From the NCBI GenBank assembly GCA_964361705.1, contig CAYIBP010000004.1, positions 1 through 59,998 on the forward strand: a stretch of DNA of 59,998 bases, in the 5' to 3' direction. Made by a program: the position numbers and the translations under genes. How positions within the stretch are numbered: the first letter of the stretch is position 1; the number at the start of each line of letters is the position of its first letter. Origin of the DNA: an uncultured Candidatus Saccharibacteria bacterium (GTDB taxonomy: Bacteria; Patescibacteriota; Minisyncoccia; Phycocordibacterales; UBA9973). The notes beneath the pieces were generated by a model. It made no database searches, was not told the DNA's origin, and saw nothing but the letters and a program-made list of their open reading frames with translations. Below, piece after piece: positions 17,639 through 55,572 of the stretch.

Positions 17639-17663
17639 AAATTTAAAAAATAAAAAATAACTT

Positions 17664-17700
17664 AGCACAAAAAATCCGCCCTTGGCGGATTTTTTGTGCT
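17664..17700 (+). terminator. Intrinsic terminator
   Basis: Perfect 17-bp stem AGCACAAAAAATCCGCC-CTT-GGCGGATTTTTTGTGCT. Confidence 0.85.
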
Positions 17701-17763
17701 TACTTGCTTTTTTTTCTTAAAGTTGTAGAAATAGGGTATTAGTAAATTAACTTTTCGTATTTT

Positions 17764-38221: not shown

Positions 38222-38770
38222 ATGAAAAATGTTGATGAAATCAGCAAAGAGCGAGCCCTGAAACTTTTTGGTAGCTCTGAAATTGAGGTTTTTGAAGTTG
38301 GCACCACGAGGGGTTTGCAACAAATTCATGTCTATCTTTTTGATGGCCTTTATGATTTTGCCGGAGAAATTCGCAAAAAAGATTTAAGCAAAGGTGGTTT
38401 TCGTTTTGCATCTCATTTGTATTTGACTGAAAGTTTGGCGAAGGTGGAGAAAATGCCGGAGGATACATTTGAGGAAATTGTGGCTAAATATGTAGAGATG
38501 AATATAGTACATCCATTTATGGAGGGTAATGGTCGCAGTATGCGGATTTGGCTGGATTTGATTTTGAAAAAAAATCTGAAAAAATGTGTGGACTGGGCGA
38601 AGGTTGATAAAATGGATTATCTGAATGCTATGGGGCGTAGTCCAATAAATGATTTAGAAATTCGTGAGCTTTTGCGTGGCGCTTTGACTGATAAGACAGA
38701 CGATCGTGAAGTTTTTATGAAAGGCATTGAACAATCATACTATTACGAAGAAGTTGATTTGTATAAATGA
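38222..38770 (+). CDS. fic: Fic family protein adenylyltransferase, class III (self-inhibited)
   Basis: Canonical [12 protein letters not shown] motif and C-terminal [10 protein letters not shown] inhibitory-helix-like motif. Confidence 0.9.
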
Positions 38771-39200: not shown

Positions 39201-40187
39201 ACTTTGAATTACGAAACTCCACAAGACCACTTTTCCCCAACCAAGCAAAATAACCTCAAGAGTCCTTGATTTTTAAAACGGAAGTTTAATTTTTCTTGTT
39301 AACAACTTTCTCTACCTAAGCACATAGGCGAGAATCGAATAAATGTAATTAGCAAAGTAACCATCAATAGATCTGGGAAACGAGGTTAGAAAAGCGTACA
39401 GCATTTTCAGATTTCTGAAGTTCAACTCAATCAGCATTCTGGTATTGTAGAGATGATACTGGAACTCAGTAATGATTTTCTTCATATTCTTTCTTGGCTT
39501 AGCAAACAGAATTCTTTTGTTTTCAATGTAGAATTCTTTTTCTAAATTTTCTGAAGAATATCCTGCGTCAGCCACAAATATACCATCAATATTTTTGTTC
39601 ATCTTCTGGAATGTTTTTCGATCATTCCCATTTGCAGAAGTAAATGAAATAGCTAAAACATTGCGATTTAAATCAGAGGTCAATGACATTTTAAGCCCAT
39701 AATAGAAGCCTTTTCCTGAATGTCCCCAAGAAGAGAGCATTTTCATAATTTTGTTGTGTCTGAAATTTTTGTTCAGACAAACCGGAATATCGGTGGAGTC
39801 GGTGTATTTAACTATATGAGCATTTTTCTGATTCCATTTTAGAATTGCGTTTAAGACCCTAAGCGCTTGCAATGCAAATCGATTCATCTGAATACAAAGT
39901 GTCTTGTAACATTCCTTAAGTTGGAATATCTCCCAGATTTTTTTCTTGGTGGGGATGCCAGTATTTTGTTTGAAGAGAGCGAGCGCGATTGTTTCTTCTC
40001 CAGAGATTGCCAATTTTCGACCAGTGCTTTTGCTTAATTTCAGTTGTAATTGTTTTGAGAAAAATTGAACTTTTGTTAATATGTCAGTATACAGTTGAAT
40101 GACTGTGTTCATAACAAAAAGCACCTCACGGCGCTTTTTGTATTTTAACCTATTTTAATTGAAAAGTGGAGTTTCGTAATTCAAAGT
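39201..40187 (-). mobile_element. Insertion sequence, IS982-like (987 bp)
   Basis: Perfect 22-bp terminal IRs ACTTTGAATTACGAAACTCCAC (39201-39222 and 40166-40187). Flanking direct repeat AGTTT, or TAGTTTA if the ends are drawn 1 bp inward. Confidence 0.88.
39312..40112 (-). CDS. DDE transposase, IS982-like
   Basis: DSTDIPVC, G.YYGLK, ADAGY and Y..R..IE..F..LK motifs; GAGGTG upstream of ATG 40112. Confidence 0.85.
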   Translation of the reverse strand: MNTVIQLYTDILTKVQFFSKQLQLKLSKSTGRKLAISGEETIALALFKQNTGIPTKKKIWEIFQLKECYKTLCIQMNRFALQALRVLNAILKWNQKNAHIVKYTDSTDIPVCLNKNFRHNKIMKMLSSWGHSGKGFYYGLKMSLTSDLNRNVLAISFTSANGNDRKTFQKMNKNIDGIFVADAGYSSENLEKEFYIENKRILFAKPRKNMKKIITEFQYHLYNTRMLIELNFRNLKMLYAFLTSFPRSIDGYFANYIYSILAYVLR

Positions 40188-40445: not shown

Positions 40446-40523
40446 TATCAATTTGACCTTTCCCCTCTCCTTTGGGGAGGGGAAAGGGGTGGGGTGTATT
40501 GTAAGGAATATATTTTAAAACAC

Positions 40524-43500
40524 ATGCAAGAAAAAGAAGAAAACCACCGCCAAGGCGGGGTGAACACAAAATCAGAAGTAGCTCTGAGGGAAGAAAAGAT
40601 TATGTATTTTTGGCGCGAGCATAAGACTTTTGAAAAAAGTTTGGAAAAGGATTCGCCAAAGGGCAATTATGTTTTTTATGATGGACCGCCTTTTGCCACG
40701 GGACAGATGCATTATGGGCATATATTGGGCAGTACTGCCAAGGATGTCATCGGGCGGTATCAGACGATGCGTGGATATCATGTGCCTCGCAAGTGGGGTT
40801 GGGATTGTCATGGTTTGCCGATAGAAAATATTGTAGAGAAAGAGCTCGGCATCGCAGGACACAATGAGATAGAAAAATACGGCATAGACAAATTCGTGGA
40901 GTATGCGCGGAGCAAAGTTTTGGAATACGATGCGGATTGGCGAGTGGGCATAGAGCGCATAGGCAGATGGGTAGATTTTGATGGTGGGTACAAGACGATG
41001 GACAATGATTTCATTGAGTCTGTGTGGTGGGCGCTCGCGGAATTAAATAAAAAAGGTTTGATATACGAGGGCGTGCGAGTGCTGGCGTATTGCGCGAGAT
41101 GCGAGACGCCGATAGCAAACTCCGAAATAGCGATGGACAACAGCTACAAAGACATCGCTGATATTTCTGTGTATGTGAAGTTTGAGTTGGAAGATGAGTT
41201 TGGTACAGAAAGTCCCTCGCTTCGCTCGGGACGATCAAATACTTCGTATTTGATCGCGTGGACCACAACGCCGTGGACATTGCCGGGCAATACTGCCATA
41301 GCGGTGAATAAAGATATTGAATATGTGAAAGTGGAAGCTGATGGGGTGAATTATATTTTGGCAGAAGCAACATTAGGAAATGTTTTTAAAGAAAAAAGTT
41401 TCAAAATTTTGGAAAAATTCAAAGGTGATAAACTTGTCGGCAGAAAATACAAGCCGGTTTTTCCATATTATCTGGATGCCGACATGCCGAACAAAGAAAA
41501 TATTTACAAAGTCTGGCATGCGGATTTTGTGACGACAGATATGGGTACAGGGATAGCGCACGAGGCGCCGGCTTTTGGCGAAGACGATATGAACCTCGCT
41601 CGAGAACACAAAATACCTTGGATCATACATGTGGACGAGACGGGCAGATTTAAAAGCGAAGTAAAAGATTTCTCAGGTCTCAAAGTAAAACCAAAGGACA
41701 CTGCTGAAGACAAAGACATGCATCTGCGCTCTGATATAGAGGTCATAAAATATTTACAGGCAAATGGATCGTATTTTGCCAAAGAAAAAATAACACACTC
41801 ATATCCGCATTGTATGCGTTGTGATACGCCGATCATTTACTACGCGCTTCCGTCTTGGTTTGTGGATATACAAAAATCAAAACCGATAGTGCAAAAAACT
41901 GCCGAATTTATAAATTGGGTACCGGAGCACTTGAAAGAGGGCAGATATAAAAATATTGTAGATAGCGCGCCAGACTGGAATATCTCGCGCAATAGATATT
42001 GGGCTTCGCCTTTGCCTGTGTGGAAGTGTGACACTTGCGACAATCAAGAATTTATAAGCTCTCTGGAAGACTTAAAAGAAAAATCCGTAAAATCCGGCAA
42101 CAAATATTTCGTGATGCGACATGGGGAATCTGAAGGAAATATAACAGGCGTAATTAGTTCATACTCTGAGCACACAGATCATTTAACAGAATTGGGCAAG
42201 AAACAAGTATTTGAAACATCGCAAAAGTTAAAAGATAAAAATATAAATTTGATTATTTATTCTGATTTGGCTCGAACAAGAGAAACCGCCGAGATAATAA
42301 AAAAGGAACTCGGTATTCTGGATGAGAATTTTATTTCAACTAAAAAAATTAGGGAAATTTCCACTGGAGTTTGGGACGGAAAAAGATGGACTGAATATGT
42401 TGCTTTTATAAAGAACGAGGGAATGCAGAGGTATCTTTATCGCCCAGACAATGGTGAATCGGGAGAAGATGTAAAAGCCAGGATGGCTAGGTTTCTTTAT
42501 GAAATAGATAGCGAATATAGAGATAAAAATATTCTGATAATAACTCACGAAGGTCCAGCTAGGATACTTTATGTAGGTGCTCTCGGTTTGAGCTCTTCTC
42601 AAATGGAGGAGAAATTAAATAATAAAGAGATAATCGTTTTTAAAAATGCGGAAGTTAATGGGTTGAATTTTGTCCCATTTCCCCACAATGCAAACTTTGA
42701 GCTTGATATGCACAGGCCATATATAGACGCTGTAAAATTAAAATGTAAATGCGGTGGTGAGATGACGCGTATCACGGAGGTTTTGGATTGTTGGTTTGAG
42801 TCAGGGTCTATGACTTTTGCGGAGGATCATTATCCTTTTGAGAGTGCTGACTGGCAAGAAAAGAATTTCCCAGCTGGATTCGTGGCGGAATACATAGCGC
42901 AGACTCGTACGTGGTTTTATTATATGCATGTTGTTTCGGCTCTGCTTTTCAATCACGCGCCGTTTAAAAATGTCGTGACCACAGGCACCCTTCGCGCTGA
43001 AGACGGACAAAAGATGTCCAAGTCCAAGCACAATTATCCTGATCCGTGGGTTTTCATAGACAAATACGGCGTGGATGCTTTGCGTATATATCTGATGTCT
43101 TCACCACTGATGAAAGGCGAAGATGCGAATTTCTCTGAAAAGCTCGTGCAGGAAATATCTAGTAAGATTGTCGGCAGATTTCACAACACGATGCTTTTTT
43201 ATGAATTGTATCGAGATAAAAATCTAGAAGATGTTTTTGAAAAAGATTTAAAAAATGTTTTGAACAAATGGATAGTCGGCAGACTCGATGAAGTGATAAC
43301 AGAAGTGACAAAAGGCATGGAAGCGTACGATATGGCGATGGCTACTAGGCCGCTTGATCTGTTTGTGGACGATCTCTCTACTTGGTATTTGCGTAGATCA
43401 CGTGATGCCATCAAAGATGGTGATAAAGAAACAAAACAAACACTGTATTTCGTACTAAAAACTTTTGCCAGACTGATGGCTCCATTTGCGCCGTTTATAG

Positions 43501-44078
43501 CAGAAGAAGTTTGGAGAAATTTGCGCGGAGATACGGATGAGGAGAGCGTGCATTTGGTAGAATGGCCAGAGGCAGGTTCTCTCGTGTCAGATAAAAATAA
43601 AATAACGCAAGATATGGCAGATGCTAGGCGCATTGTGTCGCTAGGGCTTGAAGCTCGACAGAGAACGAATATAAAAGTCCGTCAGCCATTGTCAAAAATA
43701 AGCGTAAAGACGTATTCGCTCTCGCGAGAATACGAAGAACTTATAAAAGACGAGTTGAATGTCAAAGAATTAAAAGAAGATAAAAATTTGGAAAATGAAG
43801 TCCTGCTCGATACAGATATAACAGAAGAATTAAAACAAGAAGGCGACTATCGCGAGCTCTTGCGCGGTCTGCAAGATTTGCGAAAGAAACTCGGACTCAC
43901 ACCGAAAGACCTCGTCACCTTGTCCCTAGAATGCGATGATGCTGGTAAAAGACTTGTCTCAAAATACGAAGAGAATTTATTGAAAACTGTGCTTGTCTCA
44001 AAAGTAACTTACGAGAAAAATAACGGCGAAGAAATTCTCGTCGGCGAATTATCTTTTAAGGTGAAGATGGAGAAATAA
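40524..44078 (+). CDS. ileS: Isoleucine--tRNA ligase (type 2) with inserted histidine-phosphatase domain
   Basis: FYDGPPFATG.MHYGH, GWDCHGLP, WTTTPWTLPGN, DWNISRNRYW and KMSKS; insert with RHGE...SDLARTRETA...THEG. Confidence 0.95.
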   Translation: MQEKEENHRQGGVNTKSEVALREEKIMYFWREHKTFEKSLEKDSPKGNYVFYDGPPFATGQMHYGHILGSTAKDVIGRYQTMRGYHVPRKWGWDCHGLPIENIVEKELGIAGHNEIEKYGIDKFVEYARSKVLEYDADWRVGIERIGRWVDFDGGYKTMDNDFIESVWWALAELNKKGLIYEGVRVLAYCARCETPIANSEIAMDNSYKDIADISVYVKFELEDEFGTESPSLRSGRSNTSYLIAWTTTPWTLPGNTAIAVNKDIEYVKVEADGVNYILAEATLGNVFKEKSFKILEKFKGDKLVGRKYKPVFPYYLDADMPNKENIYKVWHADFVTTDMGTGIAHEAPAFGEDDMNLAREHKIPWIIHVDETGRFKSEVKDFSGLKVKPKDTAEDKDMHLRSDIEVIKYLQANGSYFAKEKITHSYPHCMRCDTPIIYYALPSWFVDIQKSKPIVQKTAEFINWVPEHLKEGRYKNIVDSAPDWNISRNRYWASPLPVWKCDTCDNQEFISSLEDLKEKSVKSGNKYFVMRHGESEGNITGVISSYSEHTDHLTELGKKQVFETSQKLKDKNINLIIYSDLARTRETAEIIKKELGILDENFISTKKIREISTGVWDGKRWTEYVAFIKNEGMQRYLYRPDNGESGEDVKARMARFLYEIDSEYRDKNILIITHEGPARILYVGALGLSSSQMEEKLNNKEIIVFKNAEVNGLNFVPFPHNANFELDMHRPYIDAVKLKCKCGGEMTRITEVLDCWFESGSMTFAEDHYPFESADWQEKNFPAGFVAEYIAQTRTWFYYMHVVSALLFNHAPFKNVVTTGTLRAEDGQKMSKSKHNYPDPWVFIDKYGVDALRIYLMSSPLMKGEDANFSEKLVQEISSKIVGRFHNTMLFYELYRDKNLEDVFEKDLKNVLNKWIVGRLDEVITEVTKGMEAYDMAMATRPLDLFVDDLSTWYLRRSRDAIKDGDKETKQTLYFVLKTFARLMAPFAPFIAEEVWRNLRGDTDEESVHLVEWPEAGSLVSDKNKITQDMADARRIVSLGLEARQRTNIKVRQPLSKISVKTYSLSREYEELIKDELNVKELKEDKNLENEVLLDTDITEELKQEGDYRELLRGLQDLRKKLGLTPKDLVTLSLECDDAGKRLVSKYEENLLKTVLVSKVTYEKNNGEEILVGELSFKVKMEK

Positions 44079-50660: not shown

Positions 50661-51731
50661 ATGAATGGACAGAATAATTCTATGCCAATGTTTATAAGTA
50701 CTGGCACGATCATTCGTTTCTTTTTGGTTGCTATAGGATTTTTATTGATTTGGGTCTTGAGAGACCTGCTTTTGGTCATTTTGACCGCTATCATGCTTGC
50801 TTCATTTGTGGAGTCGGCGGTTCCTTATTTCAAGAAAATTAAACTCAATAGGGTGTTTGGTGTAGTAGTGCTTTATGTTTCTACTATATCTGTTTTGACA
50901 GTTTTATTTTATTTGTTTGCTCCGCTTTTGATCACTGAAGTTTATAATTTCTCGGTATTCTTGTCTTCGTATGCACCTAATTCTCCATTGCTCAATTATT
51001 TCAGCCAAGACGCTTTCGGAGGAGCAAAGGATATTTTGAGCAATCTCTCGCACAGTCTTTCACTGACCAATCTCCTCGCTACTTCCAAAGCCTTTATCAC
51101 AAATCTTTCCGGAGGATTTTTCCAAGTTTTGTCTGTTGCCTTTGGAAGTATATTCAATGTAATACTTATCGTGTTGCTCTCATTCTATCTTTCAATACAA
51201 GAGAAGGGGATAGAAAATTTTCTGCGTATCATTCTGCCGTTACAATATGAAGACTATGCCGTAGATCTATGGGAACGTTCTCGCAGAAAGATTGCCTTGT
51301 GGATGAAAGGACAGATGTTGCTTGGTATTTTGATTGCGGTTTTGACTTATTTAATACTCTCCCTGCTTGGTATACAATACGCGCTTTTGCTTGCTATTAT
51401 CGCAGGGGTGATGGAGCTCATACCTTATGGAGTTTTGATAGCTTTGATTCCGGCTGTCTCTTTCTCCTATCTGTCTGGCGGAATCTCGAGCGCTTTTATG
51501 GTATTCGGAGCTTATATCATCCTGCATCAATTTGAAGCTTTTCTTTTTGGTCCACTTATTATCAAAAGCGTAGTTGGGCTTTCTCCTCTTGTCGTTATTT
51601 TAGCGGCGGTGATAGGCTTTGAACTTGGCGGATTTTGGGGTTTGGTTTTAGGTATTCCAGTCTCGGTGATTATTATGGAATTAATGGGTGATCTTGAGAA
51701 AAAGAAAATCTCTGCTAGAACCGGAAAATGA
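50661..51731 (+). CDS. AI-2E family transporter
   Basis: Multi-TM protein; W.KGQ, ELIPYG and GL.PLVVILA..IG.ELGG..G..L.IP. Confidence 0.88.
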   Translation: MNGQNNSMPMFISTGTIIRFFLVAIGFLLIWVLRDLLLVILTAIMLASFVESAVPYFKKIKLNRVFGVVVLYVSTISVLTVLFYLFAPLLITEVYNFSVFLSSYAPNSPLLNYFSQDAFGGAKDILSNLSHSLSLTNLLATSKAFITNLSGGFFQVLSVAFGSIFNVILIVLLSFYLSIQEKGIENFLRIILPLQYEDYAVDLWERSRRKIALWMKGQMLLGILIAVLTYLILSLLGIQYALLLAIIAGVMELIPYGVLIALIPAVSFSYLSGGISSAFMVFGAYIILHQFEAFLFGPLIIKSVVGLSPLVVILAAVIGFELGGFWGLVLGIPVSVIIMELMGDLEKKKISARTGK

Positions 51732-53191
51732 AAAAAGATAGCTTTTATATTACCACCACACTGCCTTATGTAAACGCTCCACTTCATATGGGGCATGCGC
51801 TAGAATTTGTGCGCGCAGATGCGATAGTTCGCTACAAGAAACTTTTAGGGTTTGATGTGTTTTTCAATACTGGTACAGATGAGCACGGAATAAAGATTTA
51901 CAACAAGGCAAAGGAGCAGGGTCTAGATCCGCAGGAGTTTGTGGATAGGGGTTTTGAGATTTTTAAAGAACAGCTCAAGATGTTTGGTATCAGTGAAGAC
52001 GTGCATTTTGTGCGTACGACGGACACGCATCACATCGAAGCTGCGCAGGAATTTTGGAAACGCGTAGATAAGAATGGATATATCTATAAAAAAAACTACG
52101 AGGCAAAGTATTGCGTGGGTTGCGAGAGTGAAAAGACAGACAGCGAGCTAGACGAAGCAGGTGAATGCCCACTGCACCCCGGACGCAAACCCGAAACTAT
52201 CAGTGAAGAGAATTATTTCTTCAAATATTCAGCTTTTAGCGAGAAACTTTTAGAGTTTTATAAAAAGAATCCGACATTTATCGTGCCTGATTTTCGTTTC
52301 AATGAAATTAAAAATTTCGTAAAAAACGGCTTGCAGGATTTTTCTATATCAAGGTTGAAAAGCAAAATGCCTTGGGGTGTGGGTGTGCCAGGGGACGATG
52401 AACATGTGATGTACGTGTGGTTTGATGCGCTTACGAATTATATTTCTACCTTGGGTTGGCCCTTTGCTGACGCTCAGGGTAAACCAGAAGAAAGTTCTTT
52501 TGAAAAATATTGGATAAATGGTAATCCTACTCAATACTGTGGCAAAGACAATACACGTTTCCAAGGTGCTATGTGGCAGGCGATGTTGATGGCATCTGGG
52601 CTACCGAATTCACACCAGATAGTGGTAAATGGTTTTATCACCGGTGAGGGCGGAATACGAATGTCTAAAACTATAGGCAATGTCGTGGATCCGCGCGATG
52701 TCGTAGCCCTATACGGCACAGACGCTCTGCGATATTTTCTACTTCGAGAAATTAGTAGTTTTGAAGACGGTCCTTTTACACTTGAACGATTCAAAGATGC
52801 TTATAATTCCGGCCTTGCAAATGGGCTGGGGAATCTGTCTTCGAGGATTTTAACTTTATCGGAAAAACATCTGGAAAGGACGCCTGAGATCCCAGAGAAC
52901 ACAATACCCCAAGAATTTTTTGAATATTTAGAAAAGTTTGATCTGCAAAAAGCGACAGAATTCATCTGGAGCAAGATAACAGAGCTAGACAAAAGAATCC
53001 AAGAGACCGAACCGTTCAAGATCATAAAGTTCGATGAAGCTAAAGGCAAAGAAATGATAAAAAATTTAGTTTTGGATTTGTACACCATAGCCAGAATGTT
53101 AAATCCACTTCTACCCGAAACTTTCGAAAAAATAAAAAATTTAATAAAACAAAACAAAAAACCCGAAGACCCGCTTTTTTTGCGAAAATAA
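51728..53191 (+). CDS. metG: Methionine--tRNA ligase
   Basis: YITTTLPYVNAPLHMGH, TGTDEHG, YVWFDAL, RMSKTIG and DALRYFLL. Confidence 0.96.
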   Translation: MKKDSFYITTTLPYVNAPLHMGHALEFVRADAIVRYKKLLGFDVFFNTGTDEHGIKIYNKAKEQGLDPQEFVDRGFEIFKEQLKMFGISEDVHFVRTTDTHHIEAAQEFWKRVDKNGYIYKKNYEAKYCVGCESEKTDSELDEAGECPLHPGRKPETISEENYFFKYSAFSEKLLEFYKKNPTFIVPDFRFNEIKNFVKNGLQDFSISRLKSKMPWGVGVPGDDEHVMYVWFDALTNYISTLGWPFADAQGKPEESSFEKYWINGNPTQYCGKDNTRFQGAMWQAMLMASGLPNSHQIVVNGFITGEGGIRMSKTIGNVVDPRDVVALYGTDALRYFLLREISSFEDGPFTLERFKDAYNSGLANGLGNLSSRILTLSEKHLERTPEIPENTIPQEFFEYLEKFDLQKATEFIWSKITELDKRIQETEPFKIIKFDEAKGKEMIKNLVLDLYTIARMLNPLLPETFEKIKNLIKQNKKPEDPLFLRK

Positions 53192-53192
53192 T

Positions 53193-54152
53193 ATGTATGA
53201 AAGAGTAACAAATTTTAATATAAAGAAAGGAGAAAAACAACCAAATGATTTCGATAGCTTTTTTCAAAAGTCTTCATTTGGAAAAGCAATCAATAAAGAA
53301 ATTAACAGGAAAGGAAGAGATGATACAGGGGTTTTTTTTGATAAGAGTTTAGAAAAAAGATTAACAGAAAAAGAAAAACAAGAATTAATTAATACTATAA
53401 AACAAATTTTTTCTTTACTTGAAAAATTACTACCAGATTTTTTAGAAGAGCTGGGTTTAAGCACAGAATATTTTGAGGCTATGCCTAAGCTTGGTATTGA
53501 AATCAAAAATTCATTTCTCTCCAATCTTTTTAAAGAAGGTTATCATATTCCAGTTTTTGACAAGTTGATTTTATCTGAAAAGATAATTAACAGCAAGTTC
53601 TTTTTTAGGACATTGATCCATGAATTTTCTCATAGTATATGTAAAAGCGTTATTAAATATTCGCCAGATTTTAAAAGGACAATTATGCAGACGGGTTTAT
53701 CTATAAGAATGACCGAAGGTAAACCGGATAAAAGATTGGGTCATACAGAAACTGTAAACGAAGGCATGACTGATATTTTTGCGAACAGATTATATTTATA
53801 TTTAATTGAAAAAGATCCGTCTTTGTTTGAAAAATATAATCAACCGAAGACTTATGAGCCTGGGTACAAAGAGGAAGTTCAATTTATTGAAAGAATGGCA
53901 GTTTTGATTTCTAGTGAAAATGAACCATATGAACAAGTTTTAAAAGAACTGATGCAACATTATTTGGATGGTAATGCTGGTTTGTTTTACAAAAAACTCT
54001 TTTTGAAGTTTAATCCAGATGATAAGAAAAGAATTTTAAAACTTTTAAATAAATCCAATTTTAGGAATATGTCTCTTTTTTCATCTAAAAAGATAATGTT
54101 TAGAAAAATTCATAAGGCAATTGATTCAATTACACAGGGTAGCCCTGTGTAA
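53193..54152 (+). CDS. Putative zinc metallopeptidase (HExxH...NEGxT, gluzincin-like)
   Basis: TLIHEFSH, with a downstream VNEGMTD third-ligand motif. Confidence 0.6.
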   Translation: MYERVTNFNIKKGEKQPNDFDSFFQKSSFGKAINKEINRKGRDDTGVFFDKSLEKRLTEKEKQELINTIKQIFSLLEKLLPDFLEELGLSTEYFEAMPKLGIEIKNSFLSNLFKEGYHIPVFDKLILSEKIINSKFFFRTLIHEFSHSICKSVIKYSPDFKRTIMQTGLSIRMTEGKPDKRLGHTETVNEGMTDIFANRLYLYLIEKDPSLFEKYNQPKTYEPGYKEEVQFIERMAVLISSENEPYEQVLKELMQHYLDGNAGLFYKKLFLKFNPDDKKRILKLLNKSNFRNMSLFSSKKIMFRKIHKAIDSITQGSPV

Positions 54153-54157
54153 TTTAC

Positions 54158-54328
54158 ATAAAAACTGACGAAACCAAAGGCAGGGAAATGATAAAAAATT
54201 TAGTTTTGGATTTGTACACCATAGCCAGAATGTTAAATCCACTTCTACCCGAAACTTTCGAAAAAATAAAAAATTTAATAAAACAAAACAAAAAACCAGC
54301 GACACCTTTGTTTTTAAGGAAAGAATAA
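54158..54328 (+). pseudogene. Duplicated 3' end of metG (56 codons)
   Basis: The 113-bp core at 54185-54297 is identical to 53051-53163. Flanks are homologous but diverged (IKTDETKGRE vs IKFDEAKGKE; KPATPLFLRKE vs KPEDPLFLRK). Confidence 0.88.
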
Positions 54329-54330
54329 AA

Positions 54331-54666
54331 TTATTTTTTTGTAGATTTTTCGTAAATACTTAACGCTTTTAGTAATCCCTCGTGTTCATTTCCGCAAAGT
54401 GCTTTTGCCAAGTCTCTGTAAACTCTCGCCAATTCATCATATCTTTTATTTCCTAAAAATATCTCAGCTTGTTTTAATACTCCAGAGGCATGGAATTTTA
54501 ATTCCGGAGCATCTTTTTCTGAAAGTTTCTCATAAACATCTTTTATATTTTTTAATAAACTAGAAAAGTCTTCATGACGCTCAGCATATTTCTTCTTTCT
54601 GCGACGCCACCATTCTAAAGGTGTTTTTGCTATACCTTCGATCTCACCCCCTATATTTCCAAGCAT
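54331..54666 (-). CDS. Hypothetical helical protein (111 aa)
   Basis: Open frame. The longer ORF-track version overlaps tatD and its promoter, so start MLGNIGG is preferred. Confidence 0.5.
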   Translation of the reverse strand: MLGNIGGEIEGIAKTPLEWWRRRKKKYAERHEDFSSLLKNIKDVYEKLSEKDAPELKFHASGVLKQAEIFLGNKRYDELARVYRDLAKALCGNEHEGLLKALSIYEKSTKK

Positions 54667-54732
54667 ATCAACATATGTACCATAAACTAATAAAAAAAGT
54701 ATTGTAATGGTATAATACAACTCAAATATCTT

Positions 54733-55572
54733 ATGCCCCGCTATATAGACATACACAGCCATGTGAATTTAAATGCTTTCAAAGATGATGCTGATCTGGT
54801 TTTAAGGCGCGCACTGGACAATGATACTTGGGTTATAAATGTAGGTACGCAGATAGATACTTCTAAGAAAGCGATAGAGCTAGCAGAAAAATATGATGAA
54901 GGCGTATATGCAATAGTTGGGCTTCATCCGGTGCATACCAGCGCGTCTTTTCACGATGAGCAAGAGCTCGGCGGTGAAGGCAAGGCTTTTACTTCGCGTG
55001 GAGAGATTTTTGACAAAGAAAAATATCGTGAGCTTTTGAAAAATCCAAAAGTGGTGGCGATAGGCGAGTGTGGGTTGGACTATTATCATTTAGACGATAC
55101 AGCAATACAAAAAGAAAAGGAAGCATTTATAGAACAGATAGAACTCGCAAATGAATTTGGTAAGCCACTGATGTTGCACATTCGGAATAATCCAAAAGAT
55201 AAAACCAATAATGCATATACGGATGCGCTGGAGATTTTGAAAAAGTATTCAAAAGTAAAAGGAGATGTGCATTTTTTTGCTGGCAATGCAGATATAGCGC
55301 AAGCGTATTTGGATTTTGGTTTTACTCTTTCGTTTACGGGCGTCATTACTTTTACGCATGATTATGATGAAGTCATAAAAATGACTCCGCTAGATATGAT
55401 AATGTCCGAGACTGATGCGCCATATGTGACTCCTGTGCCACATAGGGGCAAGAGGAATGAACCTGTCTATGTAAAAGAAGTTGTCAAAAAAATCGCCGAA
55501 ATAAAGGGTTTACCTGAAGAAGAAGTGGCGAGGGTCATAGTGCAGAATGCAAAGAGGGTATTTGGTTTGTAA
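54733..55572 (+). CDS. tatD: TatD family nuclease
   Basis: IDIHSH, GLHP, IGECGLDY, LHIR, SETDAPY and RGKRNEP. Confidence 0.95.
   Translation: MPRYIDIHSHVNLNAFKDDADLVLRRALDNDTWVINVGTQIDTSKKAIELAEKYDEGVYAIVGLHPVHTSASFHDEQELGGEGKAFTSRGEIFDKEKYRELLKNPKVVAIGECGLDYYHLDDTAIQKEKEAFIEQIELANEFGKPLMLHIRNNPKDKTNNAYTDALEILKKYSKVKGDVHFFAGNADIAQAYLDFGFTLSFTGVITFTHDYDEVIKMTPLDMIMSETDAPYVTPVPHRGKRNEPVYVKEVVKKIAEIKGLPEEEVARVIVQNAKRVFGL

Follow-up and report, generated by a model that had tools for sequence, protein, structure and literature searches.

A duplicated metG 3' end brackets a foreign-looking gene

The window analysed here, a stretch of 59,998 nucleotides (contig CAYIBP010000004.1 of assembly GCA_964361705.1), comes from an uncultured member of the Patescibacteria and carries the 3' end of metG, the gene for methionyl-tRNA synthetase (MetRS), twice, on either side of an open reading frame (ORF) of foreign appearance, ORF319. 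Base for base, the 60-kb window matches a metaSPAdes contig of 60.5 kb that was assembled from Hainich groundwater (ERZ1292623; 0.1-µm fraction of well H51; coverage 17). The matching protein at NCBI is labelled as that of a Patescibacteria metagenome-assembled genome (MAG), and the nearest MetRS proteins, found in Paceibacteria/Nomurabacteria MAGs, are at most 80% identical to the MetRS of the window. The genes are ordered M16 peptidase, AI-2E transporter, metG, ORF319, metG tail fragment, ORF143 (on the reverse strand), tatD, rpsF, ssb and rpsR, and the locus comprises the following features:

51728..53191, + strand: metG (methionyl-tRNA synthetase, 487 aa), functional copy with a putatively hybrid tail ending in KPEDPLFLRK-stop; Pfam tRNA-synt_1g, E = 2.6e-96; thousands of homologues, the closest 80% identical
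53023..53050, + strand: left margin of copy 1 (IKFDEAKGK), presumably native; 9 differences from copy 2
53051..53163, + strand: 113-bp core of copy 1, an exact match to 54185-54297
53164..53191, + strand: right margin of copy 1 (PEDPLFLRK-stop), presumably foreign, now forming the C-terminus of MetRS; differs from copy 2 at 12 sites, most of them synonymous
53193..54152, + strand: ORF319, an orphan whose HEFSH and NEGMTD motifs suggest a zinc hydrolase; no family assigned
54128..54154, no strand: perfect 12-3-12 palindrome AATTACACAGGG-TAG-CCCTGTGTAATT, a hairpin at the insert's right-hand edge
54155..54157, no strand: non-homologous joint with abrupt onset of similarity between the copies; in the alignment, the 3' end of ORF319 precedes 54157, whereas metG coding sequence precedes 53023
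54157..54328, + strand: copy 2, a displaced metG tail without metG body, from the repeat alignment; by margin comparison its left margin is presumably foreign and its right margin presumably native
54331..54762, - strand: ORF143 (111 aa from an alternative start), orphan gene inside the metG-tatD gap; Pfam, NCBIfam and other family searches gave no match
54733..55572, + strand: tatD, the conserved right-hand neighbour of metG and far edge of the hotspot described below; Pfam TatD_DNase, E = 6e-72

The two tail copies form a direct repeat of 171 nt (53023-53193 and 54157-54327; 87% identity, 1134 nt apart), the sole long repeat within the window. Homology between them extends from MetRS residue 433 to the stop codon, with no alignment further upstream or downstream, and encloses an identical core of 113 bp (53051-53163 = 54185-54297). 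A first-pass annotation made from the sequence alone had described the metG tail as duplicated around a foreign gene with 113-bp identical cores, and both the alignment and the double depth of the core unitig (see below) confirm this description. All differences between the copies fall within the margins, with 9 in the left margin (28 nt) and 12, together with a one-codon difference in length, in the right margin (about 30 nt); copy 1 reads IKFDEAKGKE-core-KPEDPLFLRK-stop and copy 2 IKTDETKGRE-core-KPATPLFLRKE-stop.

Many of the margin changes are synonymous (CCC/CCA, CCG/CCT, CTT/TTG, TTG/TTA, CGA/AGG), and the differences approach synonymous saturation, indicating that both copies descend from translated metG genes that had diverged strongly. 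The flanks had been likened to alleles of related strains; they do differ, but this comparison understates their divergence, given margins near saturation and the lack of any relative above 80% amino-acid identity. At the DNA level, the core region of 49 relatives is 54-77% identical to the window core. Considering this and the 30-45% divergence of the margins, the 113-bp identity results from recombination and not from conservation.

The reading frame of copy 2 is open back only to the TAG in the loop of the palindrome. Within the copy (54188-54328) lies an intact ORF of 46 codons, MIKNLVLDLY...PLFLRKE-stop, preceded by a purine-rich AGGGAA, from which a free MetRS C-terminal peptide could be made, as a prediction, if the hairpin lets transcription pass. 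The palindrome itself, noted in the first-pass annotation, is perfect, with no match in 100 shuffles, and its 27 nt occur once in the window. It overlaps the stop codon of ORF319, and copy 2 begins 2 nt beyond its end. As RNA it folds with -16.5 kcal/mol (z = -2.8), and it is followed by UUUACAUAAAAA, which lacks a T-run; a simple terminator scan makes no call. The hairpin may be a terminator-like structure belonging to ORF319 and not a recombination site.

Base composition supports the earlier impression that the insert is foreign, with G+C contents of 28% for ORF319 and 33% for ORF143, compared to 42% for metG and 38% for the whole window. We compared the locus with 160 related metG loci, 80 each from species-representative genomes and from metagenomes, and found homologues of ORF319 and ORF143 in none of them. 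The drop in G+C content at the metG 3' end was considered as a sign of a donor tract and ruled out, as the relative L010 has an equal drop. The ATG of ORF319 lies 1 nt past the metG stop codon (TAATATG), as does that of tatD in relatives, an arrangement from which we infer that ORF319 is probably co-transcribed and translationally coupled with metG.

The arrangement recurs across assemblies

An assembly collapse of the core, which the first-pass annotation had allowed for, is not borne out by sequencing depth. Logan k=31 contigs cover 18 runs, three of which served for the depth comparison; in each of the three, the core forms a separate 113-nt unitig with a depth of 42, 42 and 45, whereas the depths around it are 21, 17 and 12 in the upstream flank, 25, 17 and 17.5 in the insert, and 22, 17 and 13 in the downstream flank. 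At about twice the flank depth, the core k-mers must be common to two places, and hence the identity does not stem from a popped bubble. The insert-to-flank depth ratio is about 1.0-1.4 in these runs, and the insert unitig passes from one core to the other without a branch, so that a second strain carrying it in another linear context is excluded.

The metaSPAdes contigs show the same connections. Copy 2 is crossed, from the insert into the downstream flank with ORF143, in five Hainich assemblies from two wells (L002, L003, L004, L005 and L014), and copy 1 is crossed, from metG into the insert, in two (L002 and L004); no alternative joins occur among the metaSPAdes contigs compared. In runs from 2019 to 2025 the insert stays at about 1:1 with its flanks, a persistence that suggests either low recombination or selection for retention.

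These data bear on a possible artefact in which the chromosome reads metG-core-ORF143 and the 1134-bp unit, being a small circle of its own or part of another strain, was threaded in by the assemblers through the 113-bp repeat. Four contigs (L001, L003, L005 and L013) break exactly 55 nt inside the core, as expected of an assembler tangle at k=55, an equal-copy mixture of chromosome and 1134-bp circle would yield the same k-mer graph and depths, one contig in run X9 skips the insert (see below), and two coverage-2 contigs link the interior of ORF319 to unrelated DNA. Set against this are the unbranched unitig, which leaves no room for a linear second-strain context, the joins recovered repeatedly in two wells to the exclusion of the alternatives, the near 1:1 ratio across samples and years, and the unlikelihood of a stable copy number in a 1.1-kb circle devoid of a replication gene. 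We consider such an artefact very improbable.

The two coverage-2 contigs, both from Hainich, join ORF319 at window position 54006 to an ATP-synthase-epsilon-like gene (L001:899-1227) and at 53820 to unrelated sequence (L014:1-226), and are likely low-coverage chimeras. In run X1, a contig of depth 2.5 aligning to window positions 54309-54745 carries metG-tail-like sequence, 30 other nucleotides and the start of tatD, without ORF143; it probably represents a co-occurring related strain or species with the ancestral metG-tatD adjacency. Two apparent variants, P0127 and P0129, turned out to be identical in sequence, differing only by gene calls and contig breaks.

The metG-tatD junction is an insertion hotspot

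Where no insert is present, relatives have the tatD ATG 0-5 nt past the metG stop codon, often as TAAnATG. Both genes are on the contig in 73 of the genome loci and 67 of the metagenome loci (about 140 Paceibacteria loci, the two sets overlapping in part), and inserts of 0.3-4.4 kb separate them in 20 and 24 of these, respectively. The metG-tatD junction is thus a class-wide insertion hotspot. Across the 20 genome-set inserts that were read, the cargo differs from genome to genome, is unrelated and mostly has a lower G+C content than metG; it includes a MazEF pair, several membrane proteins and, named by sequence, GNAT-, NUDIX- and NlpC/P60-like genes. No integrase was seen in these 20 inserts, as judged by reading the sequences, with no family scan made.

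One type of cargo recurs at the site. In five genomes, genes for small endonucleases of the DUF559 type lie between metG and tatD, bracketed by direct repeats of 23-92 nt that consist of G+C-rich palindromes. These cassettes, which carry their own repeats, look like a self-contained mobile cassette family in Paceibacteria:

L026:7485-7984, DUF559-type cassette
L053:7450-8139, DUF559-type cassette
L072:7442-8530, DUF559-type cassette
L033:7505-8289, DUF559-type cassette
L055:1516-1931, DUF559-type cassette

A further locus (L084:7450-8162) holds an IS200/RAYT-like gene at the hotspot, flanked by hairpins resembling repetitive extragenic palindromes (ACTTGGACAyyCGGTGTCCAAG). The apparently truncated MetRS of L090 was dismissed as a candidate, since the stretch is masked with N.

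In the window, ORF143 fills the remaining space, its stop codon lying 2 nt past that of copy 2 and its start overlapping that of tatD. The long start of ORF143 overlaps the first 30 nt of tatD (54733-54762), and the 111-aa start leaves 66 nt between both genes; whichever is used, the tight coupling of tatD to metG that characterises the relatives is lost.

A window with competence genes and no integrase

In agreement with the first-pass annotation, the window ORFs of at least 110 aa include neither a tyrosine nor a serine recombinase, and genes for ComM, ComEC, the pilus proteins PilB and PilC, RecJ, RecO and SSB are present in the window. The sole mobile-element enzyme found in the window is a DDE transposase (39312-40124, reverse strand), 13 kb from the insert and adjoined by a Fic/DOC gene (38222-38770). 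The repeat was considered as a transposase target-site duplication, and this was ruled out: the ends of the element are homologous to the sequences beyond the core, which amounts to circular permutation and not to target duplication alone. Experiments with a cultivated Saccharibacterium have demonstrated natural transformation by homologous recombination, so far in Saccharibacteria only, and the conservation of com genes extends throughout the Candidate Phyla Radiation (PMC10633639). Gene gain in groundwater Patescibacteria has also been inferred from MAGs (PMC12455944).

Alternatively, the insert might be what remains of a site-specific integrative element directed at the 3' end of metG, or a satellite of one, with the two copies as attL and attR and the integrase lost or acting in trans. 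Its hybrid, attL/attR-like repeats (an assignment of margins that is suggestive), with a substitute 3' end on one side and a displaced pseudo-end on the other, follow the icd/icdC pattern (PMC13626634), the identity in the window and that in a second locus described below, L038, both end directly after the conserved AAACAAAAAACC, and an ORF319 homologue, P0122, adjoins a large serine recombinase and an integrase fragment. Against such an element speak the want of an integrase both in the window and in the hotspot inserts read, a unit filled by a single gene with 1-4 nt to spare, and 43 other inserts that occupy the site without tail duplication; moreover, a fixed crossover point does not give a 113-bp identical core with homeologous margins. 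Overall, an integrative element appears improbable.

Presumably native margins and a possible route of entry

The origin of each margin can be approached through the closest relative, L010. In the left margin it agrees with copy 1 at 5 sites and with copy 2 at 1, and in the right margin with copy 1 at 3 sites and with copy 2 at 8 (one-sided Fisher test, about 0.04). Eight further near relatives lean the same way, more weakly, and among 49 relatives the left margin resembles copy 1 in 31 loci versus 7, and the right margin resembles copy 2 in 28 versus 18, although these loci are not independent. The counts suggest that the left margin of copy 1 and the right margin of copy 2 are native. Copy 1 would then be native on the left and foreign on the right, and copy 2 the reverse, the pattern left by one reciprocal exchange inside the core; this speaks weakly against both linear one-anchor models (one given in this section, the other with L038), both of which trace either copy entirely to a single lineage. 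Composition of the margins was also tried as a marker of their source, and hand counts gave no real difference.

Our leading reading, held tentatively and at slightly less than even probability, is that the 1134-bp unit (one core plus 53164-54184) is foreign DNA gained at the hotspot without a dedicated recombinase, through homology-anchored insertion with one illegitimate joint, carried out by host recombination, probably after DNA uptake. The partners would have been the chromosome and a circular or tandem donor unit in which a homeologous metG tail (residues 433-487) was combined with ORF319 and the hairpin, and one reciprocal exchange would have taken place inside the metG tail. Copy 1 would accordingly combine the native left margin, the core and the donor right margin, leaving MetRS with a donor-derived tail, and copy 2 would combine the donor left margin, the core and the native right margin as a displaced pseudo-tail. 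The sole non-homologous joint, at 54155-54157 beside the hairpin, would either have closed the donor unit or joined the unit to the chromosome. The 113-bp interior would have been homogenised by RecA-type exchange, either through gene conversion or as the unit popped out and re-entered repeatedly, with crossover points that varied. Delivery was probably by natural transformation.

RecA exchange requires a minimal efficient processing segment (MEPS) of 25-35 bp (PMC6382021), and margins of 28-30 nt would be too short for exchange to start, which would explain why the surviving differences all lie within 28-30 nt of the ends of homology. The first-pass annotation had proposed metG as homology anchor and the palindrome as the other breakpoint, and the structure does require one exchange by homology within the metG tail and a single non-homologous joint next to the palindrome. 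The single crossover that it invoked is right in kind and fits the topology of the margins, but cannot alone yield an identical core of 113 bp, for which a homogenisation step is needed. As for the proposed swap of the MetRS C-terminus, the functional tail does differ from the displaced copy, and the margin comparison hints at its foreign origin.

Several points weigh against this reading. Neither a donor genome nor an empty-site sister strain was found, the nearest MetRS being 80% identical; a search of the metagenome collection did not recover the core 48-mer, and the 90% MetRS cluster, with its one member, holds no full-length empty-site allele. The assignment of native and foreign margins draws on 21 sites near synonymous saturation, and a comparable tail duplication occurs in 1 of about 140 related loci, hence the route is not general for the hotspot. 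Recombination between margins differing by about 30-45% is not expected, and the first exchange needs a pre-existing block of identity or a step other than RecA. Connectivity is drawn from assembled contigs, of which the k=31 Logan contigs do not bridge the 113-bp repeat, and one low-depth Logan contig from run X9 joins metG to ORF143, skipping exactly 1134 bp; that run is without insert junction k-mers, and the contig may represent a minority empty site or a graph artefact.

The exact model of the first-pass annotation was linear homology-facilitated illegitimate recombination (HFIR) with metG as the left anchor. Here, a donor strand bearing the 3' part of a donor metG (metG_D), ORF319 and the hairpin would have paired at some point further upstream in metG, and its far end would have been joined illegitimately into the recipient metG at codon 433. 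Copy 2 would then be entirely native and copy 1 entirely of donor origin, with gene conversion of the interior to follow. It involves the same two junction types as the reading we favour, HFIR is documented in transformable bacteria (PMC6382021), competence genes lie in the window, and the position of ORF319, 1 nt past the metG stop, is expected of a contiguous metG_D-ORF319 donor operon. However, it predicts a native left margin in copy 2, where L010 matches copy 1 at 5 sites versus 1, it still needs a separate conversion step, and the anchor DNA seems far too diverged for RecA pairing. We regard linear HFIR from the metG side as unlikely, though worth keeping in view.

A second displaced metG tail

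The metG tail is also found twice in a second species, at locus L038 (CAZQAX010000025.1). Its metG ends in ENKKPETPLFLRKD and the stop codon, a gene for a 171-aa membrane protein begins 17 nt further on, and the final 13-14 residues of that protein are again (E)NKKPETPLFLRKD before the stop, encoded by synonymously different codons. Downstream of the membrane-protein gene are a strong terminator and, on the opposite strand, a 386-aa gene. Homologues of the membrane protein, 44-49% identical, lie between metG and tatD in two other species without any metG tail; they end in EEKNIGSEIK... and EEKQIKNTIS..., and both overlap the start of tatD. From these different 3' ends it follows that the resident gene of L038 lost its own 3' end at ...EE|NKKPETPLFLRKD, and its sequence indicates a join, at the A-rich microhomology GAAGAAAA, to a foreign piece that starts inside a metG tail (AAAGAAAAC...). 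The natural reading is that the donor fragment comprised the metG tail, the terminator and cargo, and was anchored homologously on the tatD side. Together, L038 and the window show that one-sided, partly illegitimate events happen at the metG-tatD site.

The L038 layout, a foreign metG tail with cargo joined to a resident gene at microhomology, invites a right-anchored version of events in the window. ORF319 would already have been resident, and a donor fragment running from metG_D codon 433 through ORF143, anchored in tatD or beyond, would have been joined illegitimately after the ORF319 hairpin, with copy 1 native and copy 2 donor. ORF143, an orphan low-GC gene within the hotspot, would suit such a fragment as its cargo. 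Yet this version predicts a native right margin in copy 1, where L010 matches copy 2 at 8 sites versus 3, it leaves the identical core unexplained, and ORF319 too looks foreign with its G+C content of 28%. Right-anchored entry therefore seems improbable to us.

ORF319 encodes a putative zinc hydrolase

ORF319 had been annotated as a peptidase. The HEFSH and NEGMTD motifs on which this was based are present, but the assignment extends to motifs only, as no curated family is reached: ORF319 has no match in Pfam, PHROG or PADLOC families and no PDB sequence match in a profile search, and its best NCBIfam match, the HExxH family TIGR04549, scores 17 bits against a cut-off of 75. Outside its own population, two distant homologues were recovered among 1.8 billion representative proteins (E = 9e-8 and 2e-6). 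In the three known proteins of the family, H143, E144, H147, N189, E190 and T193 are invariant, forming H-E-x-x-H followed 45 residues on by N-E-x-x-T. These residues fit a zincin-type metal site, with the glutamate as presumed third ligand. Two AlphaFold2 runs gave a mean confidence (pLDDT) of 53, and a fold search with the models returned no match; ORF319 thus has the HExxH motif and a candidate third ligand of the zincins, and neither a curated-family score above threshold nor a zincin fold.

The ORF319 homologue P0122 lies directly downstream of the large serine recombinase and integrase fragment mentioned above, on a very AT-rich contig possibly with a reassigned codon, which hints that the ORF319 family travels with mobile DNA. 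The repeat pattern of the window was not found in the homologue contexts L008 and L009.

Relation to known systems

In layout, the insert is closest to e14 and phage 21 in the icd gene of Escherichia coli, and in mechanism to HFIR or a Campbell-type single crossover. According to one account (PMC13626634, citing Hill et al. 1989), insertion of e14 or phage 21 supplies icd with a substitute 3' end, and the displaced native end persists as the pseudogene icdC. The window shares with this account the insertion into the 3' end of a housekeeping gene, mostly conservative changes, a pseudo-end at the far side and the expectation that recombination between the copies would restore a chimeric gene. 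The two differ in that e14 is a 15-kb prophage with an integrase and a fixed short crossover site, whereas the unit of the window measures 1.1 kb, has one gene and no recombinase, and shows homology on both sides of a 113-bp identical interior.

HFIR, as described in Acinetobacter, S. pneumoniae, P. stutzeri and B. subtilis, likewise combines one RecA-dependent anchor with one illegitimate joint and uses no mobile-element enzymes (PMC6382021). In the window, too, one junction lies in homology, confined to 53023-53191 and 54157-54328, and the other lies outside it; the known cases, however, are laboratory events with donors of known sequence, and here the target is duplicated and its interior homogenised. 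Known HFIR cases usually delete recipient DNA and do not duplicate it. Campbell-type integration resembles the window in its circularly permuted homology segment, the direct repeats on both sides and the margin pattern that the comparisons suggest, but homology here is merely about 170 bp and homeologous, and the circular form is a presumption.

The minimal mobile elements of Neisseria offer a third parallel, with variable, unrelated cargo between two conserved genes, no mobility genes, and movement thought to occur by transformation and homologous recombination in the flanking genes (PMC3787668, citing Saunders and Snyder 2002 and Snyder et al. 2007). The metG-tatD site shows different cargo between the same conserved flanks, and for ORF319 and ORF143 the same cargo does not recur in distant genomes at this site. 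A double crossover in these elements leaves no duplication, whereas the duplicated metG tail points to a one-sided event, and the host here, unlike that of the Neisseria systems, is an uncultivated member of the Paceibacteria. Nor does the unit match an integron cassette: there is no IntI or other integrase among the ORFs scanned, and the hairpin is a perfect single-copy palindrome in place of an imperfect attC with R and L boxes.

Other observations

Two further features of the window and one of its closest relative deserve mention. The isoleucyl-tRNA synthetase of about 1190 aa encoded at 40494-44078 has, in precomputed Pfam matches, a histidine phosphatase domain (His_Phos_1) between two tRNA-synt_1 stretches, an unusual insertion for an aminoacyl-tRNA synthetase. 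Between two large surface-protein-like genes, at 17640-17724, lies an inverted repeat of 41 nt with a 3-nt loop and 80% complementarity, resembling a bidirectional terminator. In L010 (7163-7209), a perfect 22-3-22 palindrome, TTCCAGCAGAGCAAAAAATTCC-AAC-GGAATTTTTTGCTCTGCTGGAA, is located within the metG coding sequence with the frame intact; this is far beyond chance for coding DNA, and is either an oddity of the Logan assembly or a real hairpin in an essential gene.

Implications for gene gain in Patescibacteria

In Patescibacteria, genomes are tiny, few mobile elements have been recognised, and little is known of the routes by which genes are gained. The insert described here is well supported as a scar that host recombination left when a gene was gained at the hotspot; it is a well-documented instance of a familiar type of event and not a new system. 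With L038, the window provides two independent scars in which a piece of foreign metG tail arrived together with cargo.

One may also envisage the 1134-bp unit as a recombinase-less selfish cassette, which would use a mimic of an essential gene's tail as a portable homology arm, cycle by host RecA over the 113-bp core and spread among Paceibacteria by natural transformation. We consider this a long shot; if true, the replacement metG tail would keep the host viable upon entry, and the diverged margins of 28-30 nt would be the parts that cycling cannot exchange. Independently of such a role, a perfect direct repeat of 113 bp predicts RecA-dependent pop-out of the insert, and cycling by this means, if it occurs, would constitute a very simple route of gene mobility. 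Collectively, the two tail scars are direct sequence evidence for gene gain in an uncultivated lineage by host recombination with one-sided homology, as natural transformation would produce.

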